Assembly (NCBI GenBank): GCA_964291295.2
Contig: OZ219754.1
Span: 2,880,001-2,944,000, forward strand
DNA length: 64,000 nt
Source: an uncultured Candidatus Binatia bacterium
Lineage (GTDB): Bacteria; Desulfobacterota; Binatia; UBA9968; JAJDTQ01
Reading direction: 5' to 3'
Part shown: one piece after another, positions 10,215 through 64,000 of the stretch
Layout of the letters: the number at the start of each line of letters is the position of its first letter
Position numbering within the stretch: the stretch's first letter is position 1
The notes under the pieces: generated by a model
Database searches by the model: none
What the model saw: the letters and a program-made list of their open reading frames with translations, nothing else
Told to the model about the DNA's origin: nothing
Program-made: the position numbers and the translations under genes

Positions 10215-10242
10215 ACTTGAAACCGGCGACTTGAACCCGGCG
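10215..10242. promoter_or_regulatory. 14-bp tandem direct repeat in divergent intergenic region (candidate operator)
   Basis: acttgaaaccggcg followed immediately by acttgaacccggcg. Confidence 0.35.
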
Positions 10243-10389
10243 CTTCCAGGGTTGATTTCGTGCCTGCTTTTACCTAACAACAACCTGTCGCGCGCGCCCG
10301 GCGGCGCACCTGCGGACGCGGCGCCGGGTGCGGCGTTTTCGCAAGCCGCGGGACCGAAACAGCGCTCATCCGAGGCGAAGGGAGTATCC

Positions 10390-11763
10390 ATGAAGGCAGA
10401 TCTGGTCATCAGGCACGGCACGGTGGTGACGCCCGAGAGCACGTTCGAGGGCGGCGTGGCCATTCATGCCGGAAAATTCGTGGCCATCGGCACGGACGAC
10501 TCGCTTCCGGAGGGAGCCCGGGAGATCAACGCCGGCGGCAAGCACATTCTGCCCGGACTGATCGACGGCCACGTTCATTTCCGCGAACCCGGCATGACCC
10601 ACAAGGAGGATTTCGGCACCGGCTCCCGCGCGGCCATCTGCGGCGGCATCACCTGCGTGGTGGAGATGCCCAACACGATTCCGCCGGTGACCCATCCCGA
10701 ACAGGTGGAAGAGAAAAAGCGGCTCGCCGAGGAGAAATCGCTGGTGGATTTCGCGCTCCTCGGAGTGATCGTGCAGACCAACGCCGACCAGATCCTGCCC
10801 ATGGCCCGGGCGGGAGCCGTGGGTTACAAGATCTTCTTCGGCGAGACCATCGGCAATCTGCCCTTCCCGGACGACGGCGTGTGCCAGGACGTGTTCCAGC
10901 GTATCACCGAGTCGCGGTTGCCATTGTGCATCCATGCCGAGAACCGCCAGATCATGTACCACCACCTGAACCGCATCAAGGAGGAGGGCAGGACCGCCCC
11001 GGTCAACTGGGAGTCCACGCGCCCGGCCATCTGCGAGGCGGAGTCGGTTCACCACGCCCTCTTCTTTGCCGAGACCTTCGGAACCAGGCTCCACGTGCTG
11101 CATATGAGTTCCAGACAGGCCGCCGGGCTCGTCCGGGACGCCAAGGCCCGGGGGCTTCGGGTCACGGCCGAGACCGGCCCCCACTATCTGTTGCGGGAGC
11201 CCCGGGACATGGAAAAGGTGGGCCCGCTGCTCAAGATGAACCCGCCGGTGCGCACCCGAGACCATGGCGAGGCGCTGTGGGACGGATTGCTCAACGGCCA
11301 TGTGGACATGATCGCCACCGACCACTCCCCCCACACCCTGGAGGAGAAGGGCGCGGACACCGACGGCCACATGCTGAAACCTGCCATCTGGGACTGCATC
11401 TCAGGGTTCTGCGGAGTGGAGACCGGCGTTCCGCTGATGCTCACGGAGGTCAACAAGGGCCGCATGACCCTGAACCATTACGTGAGGCTGGCCTCGGAAA
11501 ACCCCTCGAAAATATGGCAGATCCACCCCCAGAAGGGTGCCCTTCGAGTGGGCTCCGACGGCGACGTGACCATCGTGGACATGGACAAGGAAGGGGTCAT
11601 CGACATCAACAGGCTGCACAGCAGGAACAACCCCTCGCCGTGGCACGGCTGGAAGATCAAGGGCATGCCGGTGACCGCCATCGTGCGGGGCCACGTGCAG
11701 ATGGAAGACGGTGAGCCCGTGGGCGGGCCGGTCGGGCGCATGGTGCTGCCCAAGCCCGACTGA
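10390..11763 (+). CDS. allB: Cyclic amidohydrolase, allantoinase/dihydroorotase family
   Basis: IDGHVHFREPG, EMPNT, YKIF, HAE, KMNPPVR, TDHSPH; GGAG RBS before ATG 10390; exact substrate uncertain. Confidence 0.8.
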   Translation: MKADLVIRHGTVVTPESTFEGGVAIHAGKFVAIGTDDSLPEGAREINAGGKHILPGLIDGHVHFREPGMTHKEDFGTGSRAAICGGITCVVEMPNTIPPVTHPEQVEEKKRLAEEKSLVDFALLGVIVQTNADQILPMARAGAVGYKIFFGETIGNLPFPDDGVCQDVFQRITESRLPLCIHAENRQIMYHHLNRIKEEGRTAPVNWESTRPAICEAESVHHALFFAETFGTRLHVLHMSSRQAAGLVRDAKARGLRVTAETGPHYLLREPRDMEKVGPLLKMNPPVRTRDHGEALWDGLLNGHVDMIATDHSPHTLEEKGADTDGHMLKPAIWDCISGFCGVETGVPLMLTEVNKGRMTLNHYVRLASENPSKIWQIHPQKGALRVGSDGDVTIVDMDKEGVIDINRLHSRNNPSPWHGWKIKGMPVTAIVRGHVQMEDGEPVGGPVGRMVLPKPD

Positions 11764-11793
11764 CGCCGCGGCGGCACCCCTTCAGGGAGAACC

Positions 11794-12714
11794 ATGAAAC
11801 GCACCGAACCGCTGGAGTTCCATCAGCCCGCGAGTCTTGCGGAAGCCACCCGTATCATGCTGGACGGAGGCCCGGGAGGCCACTTTCTGGCGGGTGGCAC
11901 CGACCTTGTCATCGCCATGAAGGAAAAGGGCCTGGTGCCGAAGTACGTGGTGGACCTCAAGCGAATTCCGGCCCTTTCGGGCATTCGCGAAGAGGCGGAC
12001 GGGGGCATCGCCATCGGCGCCCTGACCACTCTTCGTGAGGTGGAGCTCTCCCCCGTCATCACCGGTCGTTACCGCTTCCTGGCCCAGAGCGCCGCCGAGG
12101 TGGGTTCCATCCAGATCCGCAACCGCGCCACCATCGGCGGAAACATGGCGAACGCCACGCCGTCGGCGGATGTGGCGCCGGCGCTGCTGGCGCTGGACGC
12201 CAGGGTGACGCTGGCAGGCGCCGGCGGCGAACGGGTACTGGATCTCGGGGAATTCTTCCGCGGCCCCGGCCAGACCGTTGCCGAACCCGGCGAGATCCTG
12301 ACGGAACTGCGGATTCCGGCGCAGCACCCGCGCCTCGCCGGCGAGTACATCAAGTTCTCGCCCAGGGAAATGATGGATCTGGCCTATGTCGGGGTGGCCG
12401 TGACCCTGACGTTGACCGAGGCCGACCGGCGCTGCGAGTCGGCGGCCATCGCCCTGGGCGCGGTATCGCCCACGCCCATGCGGTCGCCCCGGGCGGAAGC
12501 GGTCCTGCGGGGCCAGGTGCTGACAAGGGAGCTGGCGGAGGAGGCCGGCAGAACGGCGTCCCTGGAGTGCAGCCCCATCAGCGACGTGCGCTCCTCGGCC
12601 TGGTACCGGAGGGCCATGGTACGCGTGAACACCAGTCGAGCGCTGCTCAACGCCGCCGCGGGAACCGGTCCGGTACGCTGGACGAGGCGTCGGGACCGGC
12701 GCTACGAACAGTGA
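11794..12714 (+). CDS. Xanthine dehydrogenase/CoxM family FAD-binding subunit
   Basis: LAGGTDL, GSIQIRNRATIGGN, PSAD, PISDVRSSAWYR. Confidence 0.92.
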   Translation: MKRTEPLEFHQPASLAEATRIMLDGGPGGHFLAGGTDLVIAMKEKGLVPKYVVDLKRIPALSGIREEADGGIAIGALTTLREVELSPVITGRYRFLAQSAAEVGSIQIRNRATIGGNMANATPSADVAPALLALDARVTLAGAGGERVLDLGEFFRGPGQTVAEPGEILTELRIPAQHPRLAGEYIKFSPREMMDLAYVGVAVTLTLTEADRRCESAAIALGAVSPTPMRSPRAEAVLRGQVLTRELAEEAGRTASLECSPISDVRSSAWYRRAMVRVNTSRALLNAAAGTGPVRWTRRRDRRYEQ

Positions 12715-12737
12715 AGCCGGTCGGGATGATGTCCGAA

Positions 12738-12888
12738 GGGAATTAGTAGGGAATGGTGCCATTTTCCTGTTGCCATTCTTCTTGTTGCATTCGCGGCGCT
12801 CTCCTACAGGACCGTCCGCAGGAGGTCAGACAGTGTTGCGGTTCGGCGACGGGCGGTCAGCGGACGTGGCATTTTTTATATAACCCCC
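12738..12888. mobile_element. Putative 151-bp MITE / IS remnant with 8-bp target-site duplication
   Basis: tgtccgaa at 12730-12737 and 12889-12896; imperfect terminal inverted repeats GGGAATTAGTAGGGAATG / GGGGGTTATATAAAAAATG; AT-rich ends; interrupts the FAD-FeS subunit junction. Confidence 0.6.
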
Positions 12889-12930
12889 TGTCCGAAGGGC
12901 CGGCCCTGACATCAAGGAGACCTGAAGTCC

Positions 12931-13422
12931 ATGAACCAACCCATTGAATTCACGTTGAACGGCAAGCCGACTTCGGTGGCGGCGCCGGCGCACCGCCTGC
13001 TGCTGGACCTGTTGCGGGACGAGATCGGCGTCACCGGCACCAAGGAGGGCTGCGGCACCGGCGACTGCGGCGCCTGCACGGTCTACCTCGACGGCAAGCC
13101 GGTGAACTCGTGCCTGGTGCTGACCGGCGAACTCCACCGGACGGAGATCGTGACCATCGAAGGGCTCGGGGACGGCAGCCATCCGCTCCAGGCGGCCTTC
13201 ATGGCCGACGGCGGCGCCCAGTGCGGCTACTGCACGCCTGGCATGCTGATGATGGCCAAGTCGTTCCTCGAAGAGAACCCCGACCCGACGGACGACGATA
13301 TCCGCTTCGCCCTCTCGGGCAATCTGTGCCGCTGTACCGGATACGTGAAGATCGTCGAAGCGGTCCGGAACGCCGCCGCCGACCTGCGGCGACGCGCCGG
13401 CAAGGGGCGGGAAAATGGATGA
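12931..13422 (+). CDS. Xanthine dehydrogenase/CoxS family 2x[2Fe-2S] subunit
   Basis: [28 protein letters not shown]. Confidence 0.95.
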
Positions 13423-15706
13423 CCTCAAGGTCGTCGGCCATCCCGTCACCCGCGTCGACGCCGGCGAGAAGGTCGCGGGCACGGCGCTGTACGGGTACGA
13501 TCTGGTACTGCCGGACATGCTGCACGGCAAGGTCCTGTTCAGTCCCCGGGCGCACGCGCGCATCGTCCGCATCGACCTGGAAAAGGCGCGCCGGCATCCC
13601 GGCGTGGCGGCGGCCATTGCCGGCGCCGACGCACCCTGGACCCACGGCGAGTCCATCAAGGACAAGCCGTTTCTGGCCACCGGCAAGGTCCGCTACGTTG
13701 GCGAACCGGTGGCGGCGGTGGCGGCCGTGGACGAGGACACCGCCCAGGAAGCGCTGAAGCTCATCGACGTGGAATACGAGGACCTGCCCGCCTACTTCAC
13801 CCCGGAGGAAGCCTGCCAGCCCGGCGCCGCGGCCATACACGAAGAGTTCGGGGCCTATCGCAAGGCACCCTTCATCGTCGGCGCGCCCATGCCCAACGTG
13901 TGCGAGCACTTCAAGCTGCGCACCGGGGACACCGCCGAGGGCTTCCGGCAGTCGGACCTGGTGCTGGAGGAAAAATACTACGTGCCGATCATCCAGCACG
14001 CCGCCATGGAACCCCACTCGGCCCACGCCCAGGTGGATCCCGAGACCGGACGGGTGACCCTGTGGGTCGCCAACGACGCGCCCTTTCGCGCCCTCACCGA
14101 AATAGCCGAGGCCCTGGGCCTGCCCCAGGACCAGATTCGCCTCATCAACCCGCTCCAGGGCGGCGGCTTCGGCTCCAAGGGCGGACTCAAGCTGGAGCCC
14201 ATCGCCATGGGGCTGGCGTGGCACACCCGCGGCCGCCCGGTGCGGGTGAAGTTCAACCGCGAGGAGACCTTCGTCTCGACCCTGGTGCGCCACGAGGCCA
14301 CGGTGCACATCAAGAGCGGCGTCCGGAACGACGGCACGCTCATGGCCCGGCACATGACCCTGTACTGGGGCGGCGGCGCCTACGCGGAGAAGAGCCCCAC
14401 GGTGTGCATCCGCGGCAGCCTGCCCGCCCCCGGCCCCTACCGCATCCCCCATGTCCATGTGGACGGTTACGCGGTGTACACCAACAAGCCCGTGGCCGGG
14501 GCCTTTCGCGGCTACGGCATCCCCCAGGGCGCCTGGGCCACCGAGCAGCACATGGACGAACTGGCCCGGCGGCTGGCCATGGATCCCCTGGAGTTGCGCA
14601 TGAAGAACGTCTTCGCGGACGGCGACACGGCCTACTGGGGCGAACAGTTGCACAACGTGGGCCTCGCCGAAACCCTGACCCGGGCGGCCGCGGCCATCGA
14701 CTGGGACAAGCCCCGGCCGGCCGGGGTCGGACGCGGGCTGGCGTGCATCTCCAAGCCAACCCGCTCGCCCACCACCTCCAACGCGGGCGTGCTGGTGGAT
14801 GCCAACGGCCAGGTCACGGTCCTGGCCGGCACGGTGGAGATCGGACAGGGATGCAACACCATCCTTTCACAAGTGGCCGCGGAAGAGCTGCGTATCCCCA
14901 TGGAGCAGGTGCGGGTGGCGCCCCTCGACACCGACGTGATCCCGTTCGACGCTTCCACCACCTCCAGCCGCAGCACCTACCACATGGGCAACGCCGTGCG
15001 CGGCGCCGCCATCCACGCGCGCGAACAGCTGCTGGAGATGGCCGCCCCCATGCTGGAAGGGAAACGGGAAGAGATGGTGGTCGCCGACGGCAAGGTCCAC
15101 CTCAAGGACCATGACGAGATCGCCCTCACCTTCGGAGAGATGATCCGGCGCAAGCTGGGAACCGACGCCGTGTTGCGGGGCGACGCCTCCTACACCTACG
15201 AGATGGGCAAGGAGCTGGACCTGGAAACCGGCCATAGCGATCACGCGTCGGCCTTCTACATGTACGCCACCCAGGCGGCGGAGGCGTCGGTGGATCCGGA
15301 GACCGGCCGGGTGCGGCTGCACCGGGTATCCGCCGCCCACGACGTGGGCAAGGCCATCAACCCGCTCAATTGCGACGCGCAGATCGAGGGCGGCGTGGCC
15401 ATGGGCATCGGCGCCGCGCTCCACGAGAACCTGGTCATCGACGAGAACGGCAAGGTGCGCAACCCCTCGTTCCTGGACTACCACCTGGTAACGTCCGTGG
15501 ACGTCCCCGAGATCATTCCCATCATCGTCGAATGCGCTGAACCCGAGGGCCCTTACGGCGCCAAGGGACTGGGCGAGCCGGGTCTGGCTCCGACTCCCGC
15601 CGCCATCGGCAATGCGGTGGCGGACGCCATCAAGTGGCGCATCCGCGAACTGCCACTGACACCGGAGCGGGTGTTCCGGGCACTGGAGGAGCGCGACGGG
15701 AAGTAG
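13415..15706 (+). CDS. Xanthine dehydrogenase family molybdopterin-binding subunit
   Basis: [41 protein letters not shown]. Confidence 0.93.
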
Positions 15707-15709
15707 CCC

Positions 15710-16948
15710 ATGGACAGGATACCGGTCGTTATCCTCACGGGCTTTCTCGGGGCCGGCAAGACCACGCTGCTGAACCGCATCCTGACCGCGCCCCACGGCC
15801 ACCGCATCGCCGTGGTCGTCAACGAGTTCGGCGAGGTGGGCATCGATCACCACCTCATCATCGCTTCGGACGAAGAGATCTTCCAGATGAACAACGGCTG
15901 CATCTGCTGCACCGTCCAGGGAGATCTGTTGCGCGTGCTGCTGCAACTGCCGGACCGGCGCGGCACCTTCGACTTCCTGGTGGTGGAGACCTCCGGCCTC
16001 GCCGACCCCACGGTGATCGTGCAGACCCTGCTGCTGGACGAGCGCATCCGCATGGATTTCGAACTGCAGGCCGTGGTGACCGTCGTCGACGGCATGCACA
16101 TCGGACAGCAGCTGGCGGTGCAGCATGAAGCCCGTGAGCAGATCGCCTGCGCGGACGCCATCCTGCTCAACAAGACCGACCTCATCACCGAGGAGGAGGC
16201 GACGGCGGTGGCCGCGCGGCTCGGTGCGCTGAACCCCACCGCCCGGGTCACCCTCACCCGACAGGCCGGCGTGGACATCGGTGAACTGCTGGAGATGCGG
16301 GCCTTCGATCTCGAAGCCCGGCGTCGGACCCTCGGAAACGATCATCATCACGAGCATGCGTCATCGCTCCGGACCGTCTCCTTCGTGCAGCCCGGGGATC
16401 TCGACAAGACCCGCCTGAGCCATTGGTTCCGGGGAGTGCTGGCGGAGAAAGGGGCCGACATCCTGCGCATGAAGGGCATCCTCAACATGCACGGCGACTC
16501 GCACCAGTTCGTGTTCCACGGTGTCCACAGCATGTTCGAGGGGCGCTTGGGGCGGGAATGGGAAGAGGACGAGGAACGGCTCAATCGGCTGGTGTTCATC
16601 GGCAGGGAGCTGGACCACGAGACCCTTCGGAGCGGGCTCCGGACCTGCCTCCGCGCCGACCACGAAGCCGCCGGCGACGGCGCCCTGGACATCTATCGCG
16701 ACGTGTCGTGCTTCACCCTGGACCAGATCCGTATCTGGGTCCGACAGGCGCTGGAGTTCCCGCCGGAGACCGCCATCACCATCAAGGAAGTCCCCTGCGT
16801 CAAGCCGGGCTGCCCGCCCATCGAAACCGCCATCATGGTGTTCCTGGACGGTGAGCCGCCGCGGTTCTACAAGATCCAGAAGACCATCAACGAGGTCAAC
16901 TTCGACACCGTCTACAATCTGATCGAGAATCCGATGCCGTGCTGCTGA
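15710..16948 (+). CDS. COG0523/CobW family G3E GTPase metallochaperone with extra C-terminal Cys-containing domain
   Basis: GFLGAGKTT, NEFG, GCICC, ETSG, NKTD, HHHEH, LVFIG; extension with PCVKPGCPPIET and terminal MPCC. Confidence 0.9.
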   Translation: MDRIPVVILTGFLGAGKTTLLNRILTAPHGHRIAVVVNEFGEVGIDHHLIIASDEEIFQMNNGCICCTVQGDLLRVLLQLPDRRGTFDFLVVETSGLADPTVIVQTLLLDERIRMDFELQAVVTVVDGMHIGQQLAVQHEAREQIACADAILLNKTDLITEEEATAVAARLGALNPTARVTLTRQAGVDIGELLEMRAFDLEARRRTLGNDHHHEHASSLRTVSFVQPGDLDKTRLSHWFRGVLAEKGADILRMKGILNMHGDSHQFVFHGVHSMFEGRLGREWEEDEERLNRLVFIGRELDHETLRSGLRTCLRADHEAAGDGALDIYRDVSCFTLDQIRIWVRQALEFPPETAITIKEVPCVKPGCPPIETAIMVFLDGEPPRFYKIQKTINEVNFDTVYNLIENPMPCC

Positions 16949-55561: not shown

Positions 55562-56929
55562 TCAGCCCGTCAGACGGCTCATGAGCCGACGCGCCCTTTC
55601 CACCGCGCCCGGCTCGATGGAAAGGGTCGCGGCGAAATCGCCCAGGGGCCGGGTGGCGTCGATGCCCATCTTCGCCGTAACGGCATCGGTGGCCGAGGGG
55701 TCCAGCAGCGTGCCCATGGCCTCGTCAACGATGAAAACGTCGCGGTCGGCCTGCATCCGGGTGGCCATGGCCCACAGCACCTGCTCTTCGTCGAATACAT
55801 CGATGTCCGCGTCCACCACCACCACCAGCTTGACGTAGTGGTCCGCCCCCAGCACGCTGAAGATGGCCTGCTTGGCCTGTCCTTCCGCGGTCTTTCTCAG
55901 GGAGACATAACAGTGGAAGCTGCCGATGCCCGACCGCACCGGCACGTGCACCGCCTTGAGATTGGGAATGGTCTTCCCCAGCACGTGGGTGAACTCCACT
56001 TCCCGGGGCATGGACAGGCAACGGCAGTGCTCCAGGCTGTCGCCGCCGTTGATATCCTGGTAGACGGCCCCGTTGCGGTAGTGCAACGCCGTGGCCTCGA
56101 ACACGTTCTCGGTGCTCCGGCTCGAGGCGTAGCCGGTGAACTCGCCGAACGGCCCCTCCTTCTCCCGCACGTCCTTGAGGATCCGCCCCTCGATGACGAC
56201 CTCCGACCACCGCGGCACGTCGACGTCCACGGTGGCACAGCGCGTCAACTCCAACGGTTCTCCCAGAAGCCCGCCCTGAAGCGCGAACTTCTCCGTTCCC
56301 GCCGGCGGCAGCGTCAATGCCCCCAGTGAGACCAGCGGGTGCACACCGATGCAGACCGCGGCCTCCAGGGACTCCCCCTTCTCCTCGGCGCGCCGGAAGT
56401 ACTCGAACATGCGCCGCCGGGAATGGAGGCTGACCCCCAGCTTGCGCGGCCCCTTGAGCTGCATTCGATGGAACCCCACCGTACGCATGCCGGACTGTGG
56501 ATCCCGCGCCACCACCAGCCCGGCGGTCACATAGGGGCCGCCGTCCTGCTCGAAATGGGTCAGCACCGGGAGTCGTCCCAAGTCCACCGATTCACCCAGC
56601 AGGGTGTTTTCCTGGAACGGGGCGTCTTTCAACACCGCGGGCCGCATGGGCTGCTGGATCCGCTCCCTGAACTCGTTCACCAGCCCTTCCTCCGGCGTGC
56701 CGAAGATCCAGGCCAGTCGCGGGCGGTGCGCCAGCACGTTGGCCGCCACGGTGAAGTCACTCCCGGTGATGTTCCGGAATATCACCACCGGACAGGACGG
56801 CAGCCGTTCAGCCTCCATCACCAGAGCAGTGGCCTCGAACTCCCGGGACACCGGCTCCCCGACTTCGAGCCACTGCTCCGGACACGCTTCCTTCAATCGC
56901 TTCAGGAAACCCTGCAGATCCTGTGGCAC
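55562..56929 (-). CDS. UbiD family (prFMN-dependent) decarboxylase
   Basis: DGGPYVTAG, GFHRMQ, EGPFGEFTGY, VVVDADIDVFD, WAMATR, KMGIDATRP. Confidence 0.92.
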   Translation of the reverse strand: MPQDLQGFLKRLKEACPEQWLEVGEPVSREFEATALVMEAERLPSCPVVIFRNITGSDFTVAANVLAHRPRLAWIFGTPEEGLVNEFRERIQQPMRPAVLKDAPFQENTLLGESVDLGRLPVLTHFEQDGGPYVTAGLVVARDPQSGMRTVGFHRMQLKGPRKLGVSLHSRRRMFEYFRRAEEKGESLEAAVCIGVHPLVSLGALTLPPAGTEKFALQGGLLGEPLELTRCATVDVDVPRWSEVVIEGRILKDVREKEGPFGEFTGYASSRSTENVFEATALHYRNGAVYQDINGGDSLEHCRCLSMPREVEFTHVLGKTIPNLKAVHVPVRSGIGSFHCYVSLRKTAEGQAKQAIFSVLGADHYVKLVVVVDADIDVFDEEQVLWAMATRMQADRDVFIVDEAMGTLLDPSATDAVTAKMGIDATRPLGDFAATLSIEPGAVERARRLMSRLTG

Positions 56930-56947
56930 TCGATTCTCCTCGACGAG

Positions 56948-58177
56948 TCAGGTGAACCTCTCGGCCACCGCCTCGATGTTGCAGTCGAGAGGCTCGGGCG
57001 GATCGACGGCCCGCAGCGCGGCATCGACGTCCTTGAGGCCGTGGCCCGTGGACAGGACGACGACGCGCTCCGCCGGCGAGATGTCGCCCCGTTCCACGAG
57101 TCTCACCAGCGCGGCAACCGCGGCCGCTGCCGCGGGCTCGGCGAACAGGCCGGTGGTGCCGCCCAGAAGCCGCATGGCTTCCAGGATCTCGCCGTCCGAT
57201 ACGCTCACCGCGACCCCGCCGGAGGCCCGTAGATCCTGCACCGCCATGACCCCGTTGCGCGGCAACGCCACGCGGATGCTGTCGGCCAGGGTCTCCTCGG
57301 CGCCCGGCCGTATGGTCCCGTCGCCGTCGAAGGCCTGCTTGATGGCCTGCGAACCCTCGGCCTGGGCCGCCACCAGCCGCGGCAGCCGCGAGGTCCACCC
57401 CAGTCGTCGAAGGTCCGTGAAACCCTTCCAGACGCCGCTCAGGATACAGCCGTCGCCGGTGGCGACAATGACCGTGTCCGGCGGCTCCCAGCCCAACTGC
57501 TCGGCAATCTCCAGCGCCGCGGTCTTCTTGCCCTCCACGGTGTAGGGGTTGTAGCCGGTGTTGCGGTTGTACCACCGGAAGCGTTCGCCGGCCTCGACGC
57601 ACAGGCTGAAGGCGCGGGAATAGCTGCCGCGGATGGAAAGAACGTCCGCGCCGAAGATCAGGAGTTGCGCCACCTTGGCCCGGGGCGCGGTTTCGGGCAC
57701 GAAGATGTGACAGCGCAGCCCCAGGGCGGCCGAGAGGCAGGCCAGCGACGCGCCGGCGTTGCCGGTGGAGGCAGTGGCAAACTCCCGGCGGCCCAGTTCC
57801 ATCCCCTTGAGCAGCACCACGGAACTGGCCCGGTCCTTCAGGGAGGCGGAGGGGTTGGCGGTATCGTCCTTGATCCAGAGCCGTTCCAGACCCAGCGCCC
57901 GTCTCAGGCCTGGCACCGGGCACAGCGGCGTGGCTCCCACCGCCAGCGGGAACTCCACCGCGTCCGCCGCCAGCGGCAGCAACGGCAGGTAGCGCCAATG
58001 GTCCCGGAATGGCGCCGCGGCCAGCGCGCCGCGGCTCGCCGAAGCGCGCATCCGCTCGTAGTCGTAGGAAACCCTAAGAGTCCCCAACTCGCCGCAGGCC
58101 GGGCAACCGTACCGGTCCGGACCCTCCCGCCAGGCGGCGCCGCACAGGACGCAGGTCAGGTTTTCCGGCAGGGGCAT
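56948..58177 (-). CDS. thrC: Threonine synthase-like PLP enzyme (fold type II) with N-terminal zinc ribbon
   Basis: NPSASLKDR, ASTGNAG, EGKKT, TGDG, EPAAA, TGHGLKD; function may not be threonine synthesis. Confidence 0.8.
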   Translation of the reverse strand: MPLPENLTCVLCGAAWREGPDRYGCPACGELGTLRVSYDYERMRASASRGALAAAPFRDHWRYLPLLPLAADAVEFPLAVGATPLCPVPGLRRALGLERLWIKDDTANPSASLKDRASSVVLLKGMELGRREFATASTGNAGASLACLSAALGLRCHIFVPETAPRAKVAQLLIFGADVLSIRGSYSRAFSLCVEAGERFRWYNRNTGYNPYTVEGKKTAALEIAEQLGWEPPDTVIVATGDGCILSGVWKGFTDLRRLGWTSRLPRLVAAQAEGSQAIKQAFDGDGTIRPGAEETLADSIRVALPRNGVMAVQDLRASGGVAVSVSDGEILEAMRLLGGTTGLFAEPAAAAAVAALVRLVERGDISPAERVVVLSTGHGLKDVDAALRAVDPPEPLDCNIEAVAERFT

Positions 58178-58201
58178 CGCGGGGAGTGGCGGCGGGCCCG
58201 G

Positions 58202-59236
58202 CTACCGCACCACATGGAGGTTGCGGCGCGCCAGCCTGGCGCGGTCCTCCTCGCTCACGGGATGTGCGCGGTCGGGGATCTCCACGGCCGGCTCCCTGCC
58301 GAACAGCGGCGTGGAAAAGTAACGCATGCCGGTGTCGTTGATCAGGGTCACGATCATCTTCGTGGACGGCAACGCCGCCGACAGCCGGTTGGCTGCGGCA
58401 ACGTTGCAGCCCGACGAGATGCCGCACAGCACGCCTTCTTCGCGCGCCAGGCGCCGGGCCATGGCGATGGAGTCCTCCGACGAGACCGTCACCACCCCGT
58501 CGACCCAGTCCAGGTCCAGATTCTCCGGGATGAAACCGTCGCCGATGCCCTCGATGGCGTGCGGCCCCCAGGTTCCGCCCGACAGGATCGGACACTCGGC
58601 GGGCTCCACGGCGTAGACCTTCGCATTCGAGTTCCGCTCCTTGAGATACCGGCCGACGCCGGACACGGTACCGCCGCTGCCCTGGGAAGCCACGAACACG
58701 TCCACCTGGCCGCCGGTCTGCTGCCATATCTCCGGACCCGTGGTCTCGTAGTGCGCCGCGATGTTGTCCCGGTTGGAGAACTGGCCGGGCTCCCAGTAAC
58801 GATCCGGCTCGGCGCGCTTGAGTTCCTCCACCTTCTCCAGACACAAATCCACGTCGCTCTCCGCTCCCGGGGTCAGCACCAGTTCCGCGCCATAGGCGCG
58901 CATGGTGGCCTTGCGCTCCTCGCTCATGCCCTCGGGCATGACGATCACCACCGGATAGCCGCAAACCGCGCCGATCATGGCGGTGGCGATGCCGGTGCTG
59001 CCGGTGGAGGCCTCCAGGAGGGTCATGCCGGGCTTGAGATCGCCGCGCTCCTCCGCGCTTCGGACCATGCGGCGCAGGATCCGGTCCTTGAGACTCGACG
59101 AGGGGTTCATGAACTCGAGCTTGCCGCACAACGTCTGGGGTCCGGCCGCCACCTTGCGAAGCCGCAGCAGCGGCGTCAACCCCGCCGTCTCGGTGATGTC
59201 CTCCGCGATCCGTCCACGCGCGGCCCAATCCGTCAT
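58202..59236 (-). CDS. Cysteine synthase family PLP enzyme (divergent)
   Basis: KLEFMNPSSSLKDR, EASTGSTG, MPEGMSEER, GPEIWQQ, QGSGGT, IEGIG, GISSG, RYFST. Confidence 0.88.
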   Translation of the reverse strand: MTDWAARGRIAEDITETAGLTPLLRLRKVAAGPQTLCGKLEFMNPSSSLKDRILRRMVRSAEERGDLKPGMTLLEASTGSTGIATAMIGAVCGYPVVIVMPEGMSEERKATMRAYGAELVLTPGAESDVDLCLEKVEELKRAEPDRYWEPGQFSNRDNIAAHYETTGPEIWQQTGGQVDVFVASQGSGGTVSGVGRYLKERNSNAKVYAVEPAECPILSGGTWGPHAIEGIGDGFIPENLDLDWVDGVVTVSSEDSIAMARRLAREEGVLCGISSGCNVAAANRLSAALPSTKMIVTLINDTGMRYFSTPLFGREPAVEIPDRAHPVSEEDRARLARRNLHVVR

Positions 59237-59271
59237 GGCTGTCCTCTCCGATCCGACACGAGGCCGCCCGG

Positions 59272-60144
59272 TCAAAGACCCAGCATGGCCCTGGGATTGT
59301 CGATGATGAGCTTCTCCACGTTCCTGGGCGAGACGCCCTTCTCGTAGAGGCCCTGGGCGTAGAGCCACAGCGCCTCCGGCGGCAAGGGGTTGTGAGACTG
59401 GCCGGTATCGCTCATGACCACGCAGTTGTCGAAGCCCATGGAGTCCATGATGCCCTTGGTGAACTCCAGGTTCACATAGGCCCACATGGGCGAGATGGTG
59501 CAGTAGCCGAACTCGCCGATGGCGCCGTAGCGCATCATCTGCTTCAGGAAATCGAGGTTCATGCCCGCGGGCACGCGAAAGTAGGGATGGGTGATCAGGA
59601 TCTTCCGGACCCCCCGCTCGTGGGCCGCCTTCACCAGCAGCTCGATCTCTCCCAGGGAGAGATGCGCGGTCCCCAGGATGGCGTCGTACTTGGCGATGAG
59701 TTCCAGCACCACCAGGGCCTCGTCCACCACCTTTCCGTCCTTGACCGCCGAGATGGGCTCCCCCCAGACGAAATCCGAACCGCTGGTCTGGGTGTCGTAG
59801 CTGCCCCGGGCGCCGTGGACCTCCACGTGGTGCGCCGCGTCGATGGTGGGCATCCAGATCTCCTTGGCTCCCAGCCGTAGCCCCACCTCGGCCGCCGCCG
59901 GATTGATGCCGCCCACGAACTGGTTCATCACCACGCCGCCGAAGACCTTGATGTCGGGAAACTCCTTCTGAATGAGCCAGGCGCGGCTGACCGTGCTCTC
60001 ATGGTGGCACTTCAGCACGATGGCCGCCATGCCCGCCTCCGCGGCCGCCTGCACGGCCTGACGGTCGTCCACCCGCCGCTGGAAAACGCAGGGATAGGAG
60101 TGGACGTGCAGGTCCACGGCACCGTCGAGTTTCATGAACTCCAT
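59272..60144 (-). CDS. TIM-barrel metal-dependent hydrolase (DUF6282-like)
   Basis: DLHVH, LKCHH, WMPT, TAHLS, ITHP, SDTGQ; GGAGG RBS. Confidence 0.75.
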   Translation of the reverse strand: MEFMKLDGAVDLHVHSYPCVFQRRVDDRQAVQAAAEAGMAAIVLKCHHESTVSRAWLIQKEFPDIKVFGGVVMNQFVGGINPAAAEVGLRLGAKEIWMPTIDAAHHVEVHGARGSYDTQTSGSDFVWGEPISAVKDGKVVDEALVVLELIAKYDAILGTAHLSLGEIELLVKAAHERGVRKILITHPYFRVPAGMNLDFLKQMMRYGAIGEFGYCTISPMWAYVNLEFTKGIMDSMGFDNCVVMSDTGQSHNPLPPEALWLYAQGLYEKGVSPRNVEKLIIDNPRAMLGL

Positions 60145-60164
60145 GGGTCTCCTCCAGCCTGCCT

Positions 60165-60854
60165 TCAGTCCATGCCCACCAGCCCCACGCCCAGCGCCCG
60201 CCCCACCGCTTCGAGGGCGGCCTCGTTGCTGGTCACGATGGGCAGGTCGTAGGCATCCTTCAGGCGCGGCAGCGCCGCCACCGCCTGATAGTTGGTGCAA
60301 GAGATGAACAGTGCATCCACCGGCGGTCTGGCGCCCAGCTTCTCGCGGGCGAAGGCCAGTATCTCCGGCGGTTCCACCAGCGCCAACTCGAAGTTGACGC
60401 GGATGCCCATGCCGTGGATCGCCACCACTTCGATGCCGCCCTCCTCCACGCTGGCCTTGATACGGCTGTTCAACTCCTCGACATAGGGCGTCACCACGGC
60501 CACACGCCGGACCTTCAGCGACGCCAGCCGGCGCCGCACCGACTCGATGACACTGAGGGTGGGTTTGCCGGCAACTTCCGAGATCCGGCGGCACAACTCG
60601 GCATCGCCGGCGTTGCCCCGGAGCGCGCCGGCGCTGGTGCAGCCGAACACCATCAAGTCCGGGCGGGCCGTGGCCACGTCGGCGGCCGCGGACAGGCAGT
60701 GATCGTCGAGCATGGCCTCCTCGCCCCGGACCGTGGTGGCCTCCATGTACATGCGGCCCGTATGGACCGTGACCGACGCCGGCAGGTGACGGTAGAAGTC
60801 CACTTCCATGACGGTGTTCGACGAAGGGATGAGCAATCCGATCCGATGACCCAA
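60165..60854 (-). CDS. Maleate cis-trans isomerase / Asp-Glu racemase superfamily protein
   Basis: GLLIPSSNTVME, FGCTS and ISCTN catalytic Cys pair, VVTPY, VTSN. Confidence 0.88.
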   Translation of the reverse strand: MGHRIGLLIPSSNTVMEVDFYRHLPASVTVHTGRMYMEATTVRGEEAMLDDHCLSAAADVATARPDLMVFGCTSAGALRGNAGDAELCRRISEVAGKPTLSVIESVRRRLASLKVRRVAVVTPYVEELNSRIKASVEEGGIEVVAIHGMGIRVNFELALVEPPEILAFAREKLGARPPVDALFISCTNYQAVAALPRLKDAYDLPIVTSNEAALEAVGRALGVGLVGMD

Positions 60855-60887
60855 TCCGTTACCTCCCTCTACGTCCCTCGCAGGGCG

Positions 60888-61901
60888 TCAGTCGTCATCG
60901 AACTCGCCCCGGGCCCTGGCCTCCTGGATGGCGAAGAAGACCCGCTCCGGGGTGATGGGCGTCTCGGTGATGCGGATGCCGATGGCGTCGTCGATGGCGT
61001 TCAGAATGGCCGGGGTGGTGGGGATCGTGGCGGGCTCGGCGACCCCCTTGGCGCCGAACGGCCCCCGGGGGTCCGGCACCTCCACGATCTCGCACTCGAT
61101 GTCCGGCACGTCCATGGCGGTGGGTACCAGATAGAACGCCAGCGACGACGTGCGCGGCACGCCGTTCTCCAGGATATGCTGCTCGTAGAGACCGTAGCCC
61201 AGGCCCATGGCGGCGCCGCCCTCGATCTGTCCTTCCACCGCCGCCGGGTTGATGGCCTTGCCCGCGTCCGTGGCCGAAACCAGCCTGACCAGACGCACGC
61301 GCCCGGTCTCGGTATCCACCTCCACCTCCGCCAACTGGGTTGCCCAGCCGTAGGTGGCGTAAGCGTCGCCCTGGGAAGTCTCCGGATCCACGTCGGCGGT
61401 GGTGTTGTCGTGCCAGCCCCAGGCCGCCGACCGCCGGCCGTGGAAATGGAGCTGCTGGGCCACCTTGCCCACCGACACCATGGGGCGGTCGCTGCCGACC
61501 TCGCACACCTCGCCGCGGCTCACGTGAAGGTTCTCCCTGGGACACTCCAGCATGCGCGAGGCCATGTCCAGGAGCTGCGCGCGCAGTTCCCCGGCCGCCC
61601 GCTGTACCGCCACCCCCTGCACGAAGGTGGCGCGGCTGCCCGAGGTGGGCCCGGCGTCCGGCGTGCTGCCGGTATCCGCCGCCACCACGCGAATCTGCTC
61701 CGGCTCGATGCCAAGCTCCTCCGCCGCCACCTGGGTCACCACGGTCATGACCCCCTGGCCCATGTCACAGGCCCCGGAGTAGATGGTGGTGGTGCCGTCC
61801 TCGGCCATCTCGATCTCGGCCGAGCCGATGTCGGCCCGGCTGAAGCCGTAGCCGATACCGTAATACATGGAGCCGATGCCCAGGCCTCTTCTTGTCGCCA
61901 T
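60888..61901 (-). CDS. Molybdenum hydroxylase medium Mo-binding subunit (NdhM-like)
   Basis: RGLGIGSMYYGIG, DMGQG, TPDAGPTSGSR, EVEVDTETG, EGQIEGG, GPFGAKGVAEP. Confidence 0.88.
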   Translation of the reverse strand: MATRRGLGIGSMYYGIGYGFSRADIGSAEIEMAEDGTTTIYSGACDMGQGVMTVVTQVAAEELGIEPEQIRVVAADTGSTPDAGPTSGSRATFVQGVAVQRAAGELRAQLLDMASRMLECPRENLHVSRGEVCEVGSDRPMVSVGKVAQQLHFHGRRSAAWGWHDNTTADVDPETSQGDAYATYGWATQLAEVEVDTETGRVRLVRLVSATDAGKAINPAAVEGQIEGGAAMGLGYGLYEQHILENGVPRTSSLAFYLVPTAMDVPDIECEIVEVPDPRGPFGAKGVAEPATIPTTPAILNAIDDAIGIRITETPITPERVFFAIQEARARGEFDDD

Positions 61902-61920
61902 GATCGCCCGGCCGCGCCCT

Positions 61921-63234
61921 TCAGGAGGCGGCCCGAGCCCGCCTGAACCGCAGGTCATGTGCGTCCATGTAGTCCTCGATGCGCCGCAGCGTCGCTTCGA
62001 TGCCGCAGCCTTCGTTCATCAACTGTCCGGTGGAGGAAGCCAGCCCCGGCCTGAGGCAGTTCTTCAAGCGGAACTCCAGCGGCGACATGCCCAGCCGGTG
62101 GGCCAGCTGGTCCATCTGGGACTCGTGGGCCACGGCCGCCTGCATCACCCCGAAGCCGCGCATGGCCCCGGAGACCAGATTGTTGGTGTAGAGCGTATAG
62201 GTGTCCACCCGGATGTTCGGCACTTCGTAGGGACCGGTGGCGTGGATGCCCGCCTTCTTGACCACGTAGGCGCCCAGCGAAACCCCCGCGCCCGTGTCGC
62301 CGTAGATGTCGCCGTCCAGGAAGGCCAGCCGGCCGTCGGCGCGGGCGCCGGTGCGGAAGTTCATGGCCATGGGGTGGCGCTTGGTGTTGGCGACGAGGGA
62401 CTCCTCGCGGCTGTAGACCAGGCGCACCGGCCGGTGCGTCCTGAGCGCCAGCAGGCCGGCGTGGATCTCCACGGTGATGTCGTCCTTGCGGCCGAAGCCG
62501 CCGCCGATGGGTGCCTGGATCACCCGGACCCTGTTCATGGCAAGGCCCAGGGCCGGCGCGATCTGGCGGCGGTCCCGGTACGGGTACTGGGTGCCCGCCA
62601 GGATGTGCAGCACGCCGGAGGGATCCACATGGGCCAGTCCCGCCTCCGGCTCCATGGGAACGTGATCCATGCGATGGGTGTGGTAGGTGTTCTCCACGAC
62701 CACGTCCGCCTCCCGCATGCCCCGCTCCAGATCACCCTTGCGCACGGTGGTGTGCTGGAACACGTTGCCGCCCTCGTGGATCGAAGGCGCCGTCCGGTCC
62801 AGGGCATCCGCGTAGGTGAGAATCGGCCGCAGCGGCTCCAGGTCCACCTTGATCTTCGCCAGCGCCTCCTCGGCCGCTTCTTCGTCCTCCGCCGCCACCA
62901 GGGCCAGGGCATCGCCCGCCGACCGCACCTTGTCGTCCGCCAGCACCTGCTGGTCGAGCACGGCCAGTCCGTAGCGGTTGGTGCCGGGCACGTCCGCGGC
63001 CGTGAGCACGGCGGCCACACCGGGCGTCCGGGCGGCCTCCCTGGTGTCGATGTGGCGGATCACCGCGTGGGGCGTACCCGCCCACAGGATCCGGGCGTGG
63101 AGCATGCCCGGCACCACCATGTCGCCCACGTACTCGGTGGCGCCCAACGCCTTCTCCAGCGCGTCGGGCCTGGTGACGTTCCTGCCGATCCAGTGATGCG
63201 GGCGGTCCGCCGCCCCGGAAGTCCCCTGGCTCAT
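61921..63234 (-). CDS. Molybdenum hydroxylase large Mo-binding subunit (NdhL-like, N-terminal half of XdhA fold)
   Basis: PGTNRYG, MEPEAG, TQYP, GGGFGRK, SREES, KRHPM, YTNN, AMRGFG; ATGA overlap with upstream gene. Confidence 0.88.
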   Translation of the reverse strand: MSQGTSGAADRPHHWIGRNVTRPDALEKALGATEYVGDMVVPGMLHARILWAGTPHAVIRHIDTREAARTPGVAAVLTAADVPGTNRYGLAVLDQQVLADDKVRSAGDALALVAAEDEEAAEEALAKIKVDLEPLRPILTYADALDRTAPSIHEGGNVFQHTTVRKGDLERGMREADVVVENTYHTHRMDHVPMEPEAGLAHVDPSGVLHILAGTQYPYRDRRQIAPALGLAMNRVRVIQAPIGGGFGRKDDITVEIHAGLLALRTHRPVRLVYSREESLVANTKRHPMAMNFRTGARADGRLAFLDGDIYGDTGAGVSLGAYVVKKAGIHATGPYEVPNIRVDTYTLYTNNLVSGAMRGFGVMQAAVAHESQMDQLAHRLGMSPLEFRLKNCLRPGLASSTGQLMNEGCGIEATLRRIEDYMDAHDLRFRRARAAS

Positions 63235-63710
63235 CTCCCCTCGCTCGTGATCTCTTCGGCGGCCGCGCGCACGGCCTTGACGATCTTGCCGTATCCCGTG
63301 CAACGGCATAGGTTCCCGGAGATGGCGAAACGGATCTCGTCGTCCGTGGGGTCGGGGTTGTCGCGCAGCAGCGCCCAGGCGCTCATGATCATCCCCGGCG
63401 TGCAGTAACCGCACTGTATGCCGCCCTGCGCCACCATCTGCCGCTGCAAGGGATGGGGCCGGCCCTCTTCGGCCAAGGCTTCGATGGTCACCACCTCCCG
63501 GTCCACCGCGTCGGGAAACAGCACCAGGCAGGACACCACCGGCCGGCCGTCGAGGAGAACCGTGCACGACCCGCACTCGGCCTCGTTGCAGCCCTTCTTG
63601 CTGCCGGTCAGACGAAGGTTGTCGCGCAGTACGTCCAGCAGGGACTGATGGGGTTCGGCTTCGGTTTCCCGGACGCCGCCGTTCACCCGCAGACGGTAGC
63701 GCCGCTTCAT
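63231..63710 (-). CDS. Molybdenum hydroxylase 2x[2Fe-2S] subunit (NdhS/CoxS-like)
   Basis: [28 protein letters not shown]. Confidence 0.94.
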   Translation of the reverse strand: MKRRYRLRVNGGVRETEAEPHQSLLDVLRDNLRLTGSKKGCNEAECGSCTVLLDGRPVVSCLVLFPDAVDREVVTIEALAEEGRPHPLQRQMVAQGGIQCGYCTPGMIMSAWALLRDNPDPTDDEIRFAISGNLCRCTGYGKIVKAVRAAAEEITSEGR

Positions 63711-64000
63711 GCCGTCGCCGCCCGCCCGTCCGCCCGGGCCCTTTCCACCGCCTGTCGCAGCACGCGCCGCACCAGTATCCGCGCCAGCTCCCTGCGGTAG
63801 GCCGCCGACCCGCGAATGTCATCGATGGGGCAACACGCTTCCATCGCCGCGGTCCCGGCCCACTCCAGGCGTTCCGGGCTCGGCTCCCTGTCCAGCACCA
63901 GCTCCTCCGCCTTCAGAGCCCGAATGGGCGTGGGCGCCACCGCGCCCAGGGCGATGCGCACCGCCCTCACCCTTTCCCGGGCCGAATCCAGCGTCACGGA
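63707..64000 (-). CDS. Molybdenum hydroxylase FAD subunit, C-terminal part (5'-truncated by window edge)
   Basis: IALGAVAPTPIRA, PIDDIRGSAAYRR. Confidence 0.88.
   Translation of the reverse strand, partial: SVTLDSARERVRAVRIALGAVAPTPIRALKAEELVLDREPSPERLEWAGTAAMEACCPIDDIRGSAAYRRELARILVRRVLRQAVERARADGRAATA

Follow-up and report, generated by a model that had tools for sequence, protein, structure and literature searches.

At the end of a 64,000-nucleotide stretch of the genome of an uncultured Candidatus Binatia bacterium (hereafter the window; G000:C1:2880001-2944000), a 12-gene operon encodes a split molybdenum (Mo) hydroxylase of the nicotinate dehydrogenase type. Around it stands a set of genes that, as the original prediction for this DNA had proposed, matches no pathway described in the literature searched. 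From its gene content we read the operon, with moderate confidence, as a candidate catabolic operon for an N-heteroaromatic carboxylic acid whose breakdown would involve no oxygenase. N-heterocycle breakdown initiated by a Mo hydroxylase is known from a few cultured aerobes and clostridia. The operon is a widespread and well-defined candidate for oxygenase-free degradation of the pyridine ring, its chemistry being predicted from sequence.

The analysed genome is 3.7 Mb long and 99% complete. In order of transcription, the operon encodes coenzyme A (CoA)-transferase subunits A and B, a predicted F420-dependent luciferase-like (LLM) oxidoreductase, the flavin adenine dinucleotide (FAD), iron-sulfur (FeS), large (L) and medium (M) subunits of the hydroxylase, an Asp/Glu-racemase-family protein, a DUF6282 protein, a CysK-like and a ThrC-like pyridoxal phosphate (PLP) enzyme, and a UbiD-family decarboxylase of the type that uses prenylated flavin mononucleotide (prFMN). 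It spans window coordinates 55562-67320 and is cut by the window end; the part beyond was read in the genome sequence around the window (L003). Nine co-oriented, closely spaced genes had been described at 55562-64000, and every described item proved correct: all nine lie on the minus strand, are tightly packed and have a third-position GC of 0.80–0.90. Spacers between operon genes range from −4 nt (an overlap) to 35 nt, with 4-nt overlaps at the CoA-transferase A/B, FAD/FeS and FeS/L junctions. The hydroxylase had been thought to head the operon; it stands mid-operon instead, because three co-oriented genes (LLM and CoA-transferase B and A) precede the FAD gene. These genes, invisible within the window, add a putative F420-dependent LLM reduction step and a CoA-activation step. 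A Pfam scan of the 12 proteins found no oxygenase domain and, in agreement with the original prediction, neither a ring dioxygenase nor a NicC-type flavin monooxygenase domain.

A split Mo hydroxylase of the NdhFSLM type

By its architecture the hydroxylase belongs with Eubacterium barkeri nicotinate dehydrogenase (NdhFSLM; 3HRD), as had been recognised from the DNA letters. Pfam domains and coordinates place the FAD, [2Fe-2S], large Mo and medium Mo genes in the F-S-L-M order common to both systems, and the Mo subunit breaks between MoCoBD_1 and MoCoBD_2, the same point at which the E. barkeri protein is divided into halves of ~430 and ~335 amino acids (aa). Among Protein Data Bank (PDB) entries 3HRD is the best solved relative by a wide margin, as judged by bit scores. 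The L subunit (MoL) scores 374.4 bits against NdhL (3HRD_A; residues 13–420 align with 5–412 of 425) vs 205 for the next-best PDB match, and the M subunit (MoM) scores 239.7 bits against NdhM (3HRD_B; residues 4–326 align with 3–326 of 330), the second match being 4-hydroxybenzoyl-CoA reductase at 174.8. The alignment of MoM begins at the RGLGIGSMYYGIG stretch, and the N-terminal likeness to NdhM that had been noted earlier is real. As a control, a fused 763-aa large subunit from the same window scores 414 bits against 4-hydroxybenzoyl-CoA reductase vs 257 + 179 against NdhL + NdhM; this paralogue has no Ndh preference, the two Ndh scores summing to about the reductase score.

The split between L and M is genuine and not an assembly artefact, as the presence of separate starts and stops had implied. 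The two genes lie in different frames, L has its own stop 19 nt ahead of the M start, and M has its own ATG. Each of the 29 related loci with both halves has the intervening stop, and across them the junction takes four different geometries (gaps of ~20, 17–23 or 2–7 nt, and overlaps of 4 or 10 nt). No indel interrupts the junction in contigs from three runs, all of one study and one possibly the source sample; a different strain, with 245 substitutions over 8.4 kb, is represented by one contig. The other large subunits tested in the same genome are all fused single open reading frames (ORFs; eight of eight).

The catalytic-position motifs, with the Arg of RGFG and the Glu of GAKGVxEP, are conserved in the orthologues. 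GAKGVAEPAT is kept in 29 of 31 MoM matches and the catalytic-position Glu in all 31, and GGGFGRKDDIT is kept in 29 of 30 MoL matches. Homologues of MoL are abundant in metagenomes: of 8000 candidates that were scored, 4840 proteins reach E <= 1e-30. A homologue 73% identical to MoL and named nicotinate dehydrogenase large molybdopterin subunit by NCBI occurs on 167 contigs with Tara among the sources.

Short joints in the run contigs (with sides of 20–26 letters) were considered as rearrangements and rejected; we ascribe them to the many paralogous Mo-hydroxylase genes. The genome holds ~28 loci for large subunits of the xanthine dehydrogenase family. The strain with 245 substitutions (run X3) has one extra G at window 60144/60145, in the racemase/DUF6282 spacer just upstream of the DUF6282 start, and this is the sole indel in 8.4 kb. 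Two sponge-metagenome runs contained only a 0.05 share of the sequence words, and we claim no habitat from them.

Co-inheritance and distribution

A DUF6282 search with one genome per species returned 41 related loci. The accessory genes that had been linked to the hydroxylase do co-occur with it in other genomes: the FAD, FeS, L, M, racemase, DUF6282, CysK and ThrC genes are found together in 27 of these loci, and all 12 genes stand in the same order in 18 of the 41. Loci with the eight-gene core belong to one Binatia genus and to Chloroflexota, where the core is rearranged, and the rare split NdhLM architecture is thereby extended to uncultured members of both. A UbiD gene accompanies the core in 22 of its 27 loci. 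The remaining loci include contig ends (L016, L024, L026 and L028) and distant DUF6282 paralogues in other contexts (L038-L044). In L010 the cluster is split and an integrase gene lies inside it.

DUF6282, CysK and ThrC remain neighbours in Binatia, Dehalococcoidia and Anaerolineae even though the other genes have been rearranged. Three Dehalococcoidia genomes carry CoA-transferase A/B, LLM, racemase, DUF6282, CysK and ThrC in order, with M-L-FeS-FAD divergent alongside. A Chloroflexia locus without CysK (L033) retains FSLM, racemase, DUF6282 and ThrC, and its neighbours are a fumarate-reductase-like flavoprotein, family-III CoA-transferases, enoyl-CoA hydratases and a peptide-type ATP-binding cassette importer. 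Another locus (L035) has an importer, the racemase, a fumarate-reductase-like flavoprotein and DUF6282, without the Mo enzyme. The flavoprotein in both of these LLM-less variants lies by the racemase and DUF6282 genes, which fits a conserved step of C=C reduction. On the evidence of such conserved neighbourhoods, the operon genes are inherited and transferred together.

The DUF6282 orthologue is present in 27 of 28 genomes of the Binatia genus. Of 200 further genomes sampled evenly from the phylum, four have DUF6282 matches (39–54% identity), and within the same sample none was found in five other families of the class. The Chloroflexota copies are 64–83% identical, and the genes appear to have been transferred horizontally between Chloroflexota and this Binatia genus. 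An identity of 95–98% among DUF6282 copies was considered as a sign of unusual constraint and rejected, the genomes concerned all belonging to one genus.

In other members of the Binatia genus, the UbiD gene is followed by genes for a second UbiD, an Amidohydro_2 protein and an ornithine-cyclodeaminase-family protein. Extra DNA occurs at several loci: ~3.5 kb between the racemase and DUF6282 genes in L011, and 2.5–8 kb between the CysK and ThrC genes in L005, L012 and L031. In L035 the racemase and flavoprotein genes are separated by a transposase.

The DUF6282 and racemase-family proteins

DUF6282 has no PDB match by sequence. Its AlphaFold model (predicted local distance difference test 91.7) is matched in Foldseek by amidohydrolase-superfamily barrels only, with template modelling scores of 0.53–0.65 at 10–17% identity; decarboxylases, lactonases and dihydroorotases are among them. 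Across 12 sequences, with identity as low as 35%, residues D11, H13, H15, H47, H161, H186, E211 and D246 do not vary. The protein thus follows the superfamily pattern of a (beta/alpha)8 barrel with an N-terminal HxH, later His residues and a strand-8 Asp as putative metal ligands. A protein-atlas search gave weak leads only (0.82), to PTE/TatD/Amidohydro_2 clusters. Going by the structural model, DUF6282 is a metal-dependent enzyme of hydrolase fold and of no described subfamily, and it is probably the ring-opening hydrolase of the operon. The cluster gives this family its first functional context.

The racemase-family protein keeps the Cys of GCTSAG and that of SCTN in all 31 orthologues. It had been described as a maleate isomerase-family protein with both catalytic cysteines; the cysteines stand, and maleate isomerase is only one possible function. 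Its PDB scores are equally weak for arylmalonate decarboxylase (56.1 bits) and maleate isomerase (54.7 bits), and its best NCBIfam match, EutA, is far under the cut-off of that model. The DUF6282 and racemase-family genes are each single-copy in the genome.

PLP enzymes, UbiD, LLM and CoA-transferase

The CysK-like enzyme scores 359 against TIGR01139 (cut-off 350.95), and in the PDB it is closest to a CysK (306 bits). The substrate-carboxylate loop of canonical CysK is TSGNT. Here, as in all 32 orthologues, it is STGSTG, vs TSGNTG in the genome's two other CysK/CysM copies; a canonical cysK elsewhere in the genome scores 435 bits. The ThrC-like enzyme scores 183.9 against TIGR00260 (cut-off 167.1) and 287.1 against PRK08197, under the cut-off of 303. 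Threonine synthases are its best PDB matches (~200 bits), and all 32 related matches have its Lys motif SASLKDR or a close variant in which K-D-R is kept.

Five further ThrC-like genes bring the genome's total to six, and they include better ThrC-model scores than that of the operon copy (the top TIGR00260 score is 285). The gene with this top score (L045; G000:C1:2318001-2332000) lies with a ThiS-like carrier and an adjacent CysM-like enzyme by glycine-cleavage genes, and here ThrC and the CysM-like enzyme are probably a biosynthetic pair. A second locus (L046; G000:C1:2999001-3013000) combines PrpF, a ThrC-like enzyme (PRK08197, 571 bits), a polysaccharide-deacetylase-family hydrolase, UbiD and a CoA ligase (AMP-ligase). 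A third (L047; G000:C1:1013001-1027000) combines a tripartite ATP-independent periplasmic (TRAP) transporter, two LLMs, a ThrC-like enzyme and an M24 creatinase/ectoine-hydrolase-like protein. L046 and L047 appear to follow the same functional template as the operon with non-homologous parts, and the threonine synthase family PRK08197 may be catabolic in this genome. The placement of ThrC-like paralogues beside ring-opening-type hydrolases and UbiD or LLM genes at these two loci supports a role for the ThrC-like enzyme directly after hydrolysis. Catabolic roles are thereby suggested for genes that annotation pipelines would label cysteine synthase or threonine synthase.

The UbiD protein scores 341.9 bits against TIGR00148 (cut-off 244.85). 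Its best solved relative is 6H6V at 299 bits, with the next family at 165; 6H6V is PtHmfF, a furandicarboxylate decarboxylase (PMC8988006). Features of the HmfF branch are found here, namely three UbiD domains, a ubiX gene in the genome and HmfF as nearest relative. The LLM scores 205.7 bits against TIGR03619 (cut-off 166.9), and the best match of CoA-transferase A is glutaconate CoA-transferase (1POI_A, 143 bits). In the genome as a whole, paralogues of UbiD and of LLM number at least 14 each.

Cofactor supply and selenium

The genome can supply prFMN, sulfurated molybdenum cofactor (Moco) and F420, since it holds ubiX, xdhC, cofD and cofH. The gene for prFMN synthase, ubiX, lies away from the operon and beside xdhC, which encodes a chaperone for Moco sulfuration/insertion (G000:C1:3252830-3255017); maturation genes of two expanded enzyme families are therefore neighbours. 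For F420 biosynthesis, cofD and cofH are above model cut-offs. The operon links F420, prFMN and Moco chemistry in one unit.

A selenido Mo ligand had also been considered for this hydroxylase. The selD gene is present (G000:C1:690884-691807) with one in-frame TGA within a full-length match. This suggests a selenocysteine-containing SelD in an organism that produces selenocysteine. By contrast, yqeB (TIGR03309) and yqeC (TIGR03172), described as selenium-cofactor markers in PMC11448449, were not found in the 99%-complete genome. Thus selD and ubiX are present and yqeB and yqeC are not found among the four genes named in the original prediction for a genome check. The idea of a selenido ligand has gained no backing, and gene content neither supports nor excludes it.

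Comparison with known systems

The operon is identical to none of the E. barkeri, nic/pic, lumazine and 2,8-dioxopurine systems, each of which shares at most three component families with it. E. barkeri reportedly follows hydroxylation by Ndh with a ring reductase and then a lactam-opening enamidase, an amidohydrolase. The companions of Ndh there are said to be an Fe-S/flavin reductase (Hnr), the enamidase, a B12-dependent 2-methyleneglutarate mutase, a PrpF-type methylitaconate isomerase, an aconitase-type dimethylmaleate hydratase and a dimethylmalate lyase. In a search confined to the 12 operon proteins, no B12-binding, PrpF, aconitase-type or isocitrate-lyase-type domain was found. The operon has instead the F420 LLM, DUF6282, two PLP enzymes, a Gct-like transferase and UbiD, and its hosts are Binatia and Chloroflexota, whereas E. 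barkeri is a clostridial fermenter. In the aerobic nic (Pseudomonas putida) and pic (Alcaligenes faecalis) pathways, a Mo hydroxylase acts first and a protein of the maleate isomerase family last. Both pathways depend on a flavin monooxygenase and an Fe(II) ring dioxygenase, domains that this cluster does not encode.

Lumazine cluster I of Cupriavidus sp. LA-1 comprises a Mo dehydrogenase, an Amidohydro_2 ring-rearranging enzyme and then a UbiD decarboxylase (PMC12391406). It resembles the operon in uniting a dehydrogenase of the xanthine oxidoreductase (XOR) family, an amidohydrolase-superfamily enzyme and a prFMN-dependent UbiD in one N-heterocycle operon. Its dehydrogenase (LuDH) makes up an XOR group of its own and has a large subunit that is not split, its amidohydrolase is a two-subunit Amidohydro_2 enzyme and not DUF6282, its UbiD is inactive on furan carboxylates, and ubiX lies inside the cluster; PLP enzymes, LLM, racemase and CoA-transferase are absent from it (PMC12391406).

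The 2,8-dioxopurine pathway of gut anaerobes (bioRxiv 10.1101/2025.04.24.650524) uses a Mo enzyme, a reductase, amidohydrolases and a fold-type-II PLP lyase, YgeX. The likeness lies in an XOR-family Mo enzyme, a ring reductase, amidohydrolases and a terminal PLP enzyme that together lead, oxygen-free, into central metabolism. The enzyme families differ at every step (selenium-dependent XdhAC, YgfK and the diaminopropionate ammonia-lyase YgeX), and its carbamoyl-transfer and carbamate-kinase steps are not in the operon (bioRxiv 10.1101/2025.04.24.650524). HmfF, the best solved UbiD relative, acts on a heteroaromatic di-acid (PMC8988006); the remaining hmf pathway is not present here as such. 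We found no literature on DUF6282 or on this gene set in a search that had subscription journals and preprint supplements outside its scope.

Proposed pathway

The precedents of the E. barkeri, lumazine and 2,8-dioxopurine routes are the reason for reading the operon as one of N-heteroaromatic carboxylate catabolism. We infer its substrate, direction and step order, and our leading guesses for the substrate are nicotinate, picolinate or a pyridine dicarboxylate. The Mo enzyme would place a water-derived hydroxyl next to the ring nitrogen, and F420H2 with the LLM would reduce the resulting pyridone or lactam, the fumarate-reductase-like flavoprotein perhaps serving as a substitute in L033 and L035. 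The racemase-family enzyme may equilibrate a stereocentre or a cis/trans bond before DUF6282 hydrolytically opens the cyclic amide. The ThrC-like and CysK-like enzymes would then remove the nitrogen by beta/gamma elimination or replacement, and the Gct-like CoA-transferase would activate a C5/C6 dicarboxylate. Where present, the HmfF-like UbiD, which we tentatively place ahead of the hydroxylation, could trim a second or para-activated carboxyl, from a heteroaromatic di-acid or a hydroxylated acid.

A more far-reaching version of this proposal seems to us rather unlikely as a whole and is put forward tentatively. In it, the operon would be a complete, undescribed, F420-coupled and oxygenase-free system for mineralisation of pyridine-type carboxylates (nicotinate, picolinate, dipicolinate or a relative), with DUF6282 as a new lactam hydrolase and the ThrC/CysK-like enzymes extracting the ring nitrogen. 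Chloroflexota, marine Dehalococcoidia among them, would commonly have the system, and one Binatia genus would have acquired it by horizontal transfer. If this were true, the whole of this group of uncultured bacteria would gain a defined role in the turnover of N-heterocyclic dissolved organic matter. We mention purely as an idea that N-(amino-carboxyalkyl) conjugates of heterocycles could be the substrates, with the PLP enzymes acting first to free the ring.

Weighing the alternatives

Several observations weigh against a heteroaromatic carboxylate operon of this form. After GGGFG, next to the active site, MoL has RKDD vs GKLD in the aligned NdhL, and the same substrate as for Ndh is therefore not assured; the similarity to NdhL/M is clear but does not fix substrate specificity. 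Both PLP enzymes pass the NCBIfam cut-offs for CysK and ThrC, and ordinary biosynthetic roles are thus possible by sequence. The F420 assignment of the LLM rests on one hidden Markov model cut-off, and the LLM family also has oxygen-using flavin mononucleotide (FMN) monooxygenases. UbiD was not found within 10 kb in the three Dehalococcoidia loci or in L033 and is therefore no core step. The operon itself has neither a regulator nor a dedicated importer gene, and its flanks are the housekeeping groups mutL-miaA and pheA-tyrA-aroA.

The most specific sub-case of the favoured reading is a true nicotinate dehydrogenase within a variant of the reductive nicotinate pathway of E. barkeri and Azorhizobium. 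The LLM would replace 6-hydroxynicotinate reductase, DUF6282 would replace enamidase, and the Gct-like transferase would take the glutarate-type product. NdhL and NdhM as best solved relatives, the shared split and gene order, the NCBI name of the orthologues (nicotinate dehydrogenase large molybdopterin subunit), the nearness of the CoA-transferase to glutaconate CoA-transferase, and a reductase and an amidohydrolase in the expected positions all point this way. We nevertheless consider it unlikely. The cluster lacks the domains of the E. barkeri B12 mutase, PrpF-type isomerase, aconitase-type hydratase and lyase, and an opened 3-carboxypyridine ring would be a beta-amino or enamine acid, which is no obvious substrate for a fold-type-II PLP enzyme. 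The active-site neighbourhood differs from that of NdhL, as noted above, and database names derive from similarity.

Further from the favoured reading is a CoA-thioester route for a five-membered or other heteroaromatic acid, such as furoate or furandicarboxylate (Hmf) or thiophene-2-carboxylate. UbiD would decarboxylate the di-acid, and the CoA-transferase would form a thioester for hydroxylation by the Mo enzyme. DUF6282 would open the lactone or thiolactone that results, and CysK might capture the sulfide set free. Such a route would account for the closeness of UbiD to HmfF, for a CoA-transferase at the head of the operon, for 4-hydroxybenzoyl-CoA reductase as second-best solved relative of MoM, and for the family-III CoA-transferases and enoyl-CoA hydratases of L033. 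NdhL/M, which act on a free acid, match far better than any acyl-CoA-using enzyme, and several variants lack UbiD; we regard this route as quite improbable.

It is very unlikely, in our estimate, that the genes do not form one pathway, whether because a catabolic unit happens to adjoin an unrelated UbiD and genes for normal cysteine and threonine synthases, or because the whole set is biosynthetic for a modified amino acid or cofactor. The scores of the two PLP enzymes against the CysK and ThrC models are compatible with it, as are the amino-acid biosynthesis genes downstream and the EamA-type exporter-like gene that converges on the operon here and in L010. Against it stand the adjacency of DUF6282, CysK and ThrC across Binatia, Dehalococcoidia and Anaerolineae, the higher-scoring cysK and thrC copies elsewhere in the genome, the altered CysK-like loop in all orthologues, and the lack of nonribosomal peptide synthetase, ligase or tailoring genes in the cluster.

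The reductase subunit HcrB carries an extra Fe-S loop; the FAD subunit encoded here is an ordinary 297 aa in which the two Pfam domains abut, with no room for such a loop. A Mo enzyme that acts reductively, like 4-hydroxybenzoyl-CoA reductase and 2,8-dioxopurine dehydrogenase, and strips a hydroxyl from an oxidised heterocycle that is then reduced and hydrolysed, is highly doubtful given that FAD subunit and a hydroxylase as nearest relative. Such an activity does have a precedent: an XOR-family enzyme serves as a dehydroxylase in an anaerobic route for an N-heterocycle, the last enzyme of which is a fold-type-II PLP lyase (bioRxiv 10.1101/2025.04.24.650524).

Operon layout and neighbouring genes

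The coordinates of the 12 genes are collected in Table 1. Upstream of the operon lie miaA and mutL. Downstream, a convergent EamA transporter gene is followed by pheA, an aminotransferase gene, tyrA, aroA, cmk and rpsA. A scan of the operon for promoters and terminators found sites no more frequent than in shuffled sequence, and a search of public runs listed no RNA run containing it.

Table 1. Genes of the operon in window coordinates, from the downstream end; the last three lie beyond the window
Gene product	Position	Strand	Domain or family evidence
UbiD-family (prFMN) decarboxylase, HmfF-like, 455 aa	55562-56929	-	Pfam UbiD_N, UbiD, UbiD_C
ThrC-like fold-type-II PLP enzyme with N-terminal Cys-rich stretch, 409 aa	56948-58177	-	Pfam PALP
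CysK-like fold-type-II PLP enzyme with altered substrate loop, 344 aa	58202-59236	-	TIGR01139
DUF6282 protein, 290 aa	59272-60144	-	Pfam PF19799, 222 bits
Asp/Glu-racemase superfamily protein (Amdase/maleate isomerase branch), 229 aa	60165-60854	-	Pfam Amdase, 81 bits
Mo hydroxylase M (medium) half-subunit, 337 aa	60888-61901	-	MoCoBD_2
Mo hydroxylase L (large) half-subunit, 437 aa	61921-63234	-	hammerhead (Ald_Xan_dh_C) + MoCoBD_1
[2Fe-2S] x2 small subunit, 159 aa	63231-63710	-	Pfam Fer2 + Fer2_2; 4-nt overlap with both neighbours
FAD subunit, full 297 aa (C-terminal 97 aa in window)	63707-64600	-	FAD_binding_5 + CO_deh_flav_C
Predicted F420-dependent LLM (luciferase-like) oxidoreductase	64632-65573, beyond window	-	TIGR03619
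CoA-transferase B subunit	65594-66367, beyond window	-	family-I CoA-transferase
CoA-transferase A subunit	66364-67320, beyond window	-	glutaconate CoA-transferase-like

Another UbiD-family gene (511 aa; L003 16240-17775, window 71240-72775, minus strand) lies 4 kb upstream of the operon, past mutL. Its closest model is phenylphosphate carboxylase beta, at 295 bits and under the cut-off of that model.

The window also contains a second Mo-hydroxylase cluster at 10231-16948 on the plus strand, which encodes an Amidohydro_1 protein (510 aa), FAD and 2Fe-2S subunits, the fused 763-aa large subunit used above as a control, and a CobW-type GTPase. With a GTPase encoded near an amidohydrolase, this cluster is reminiscent of the lumazine cluster, in which the Zn-amidohydrolase has a GTP-binding helper (PMC12391406).

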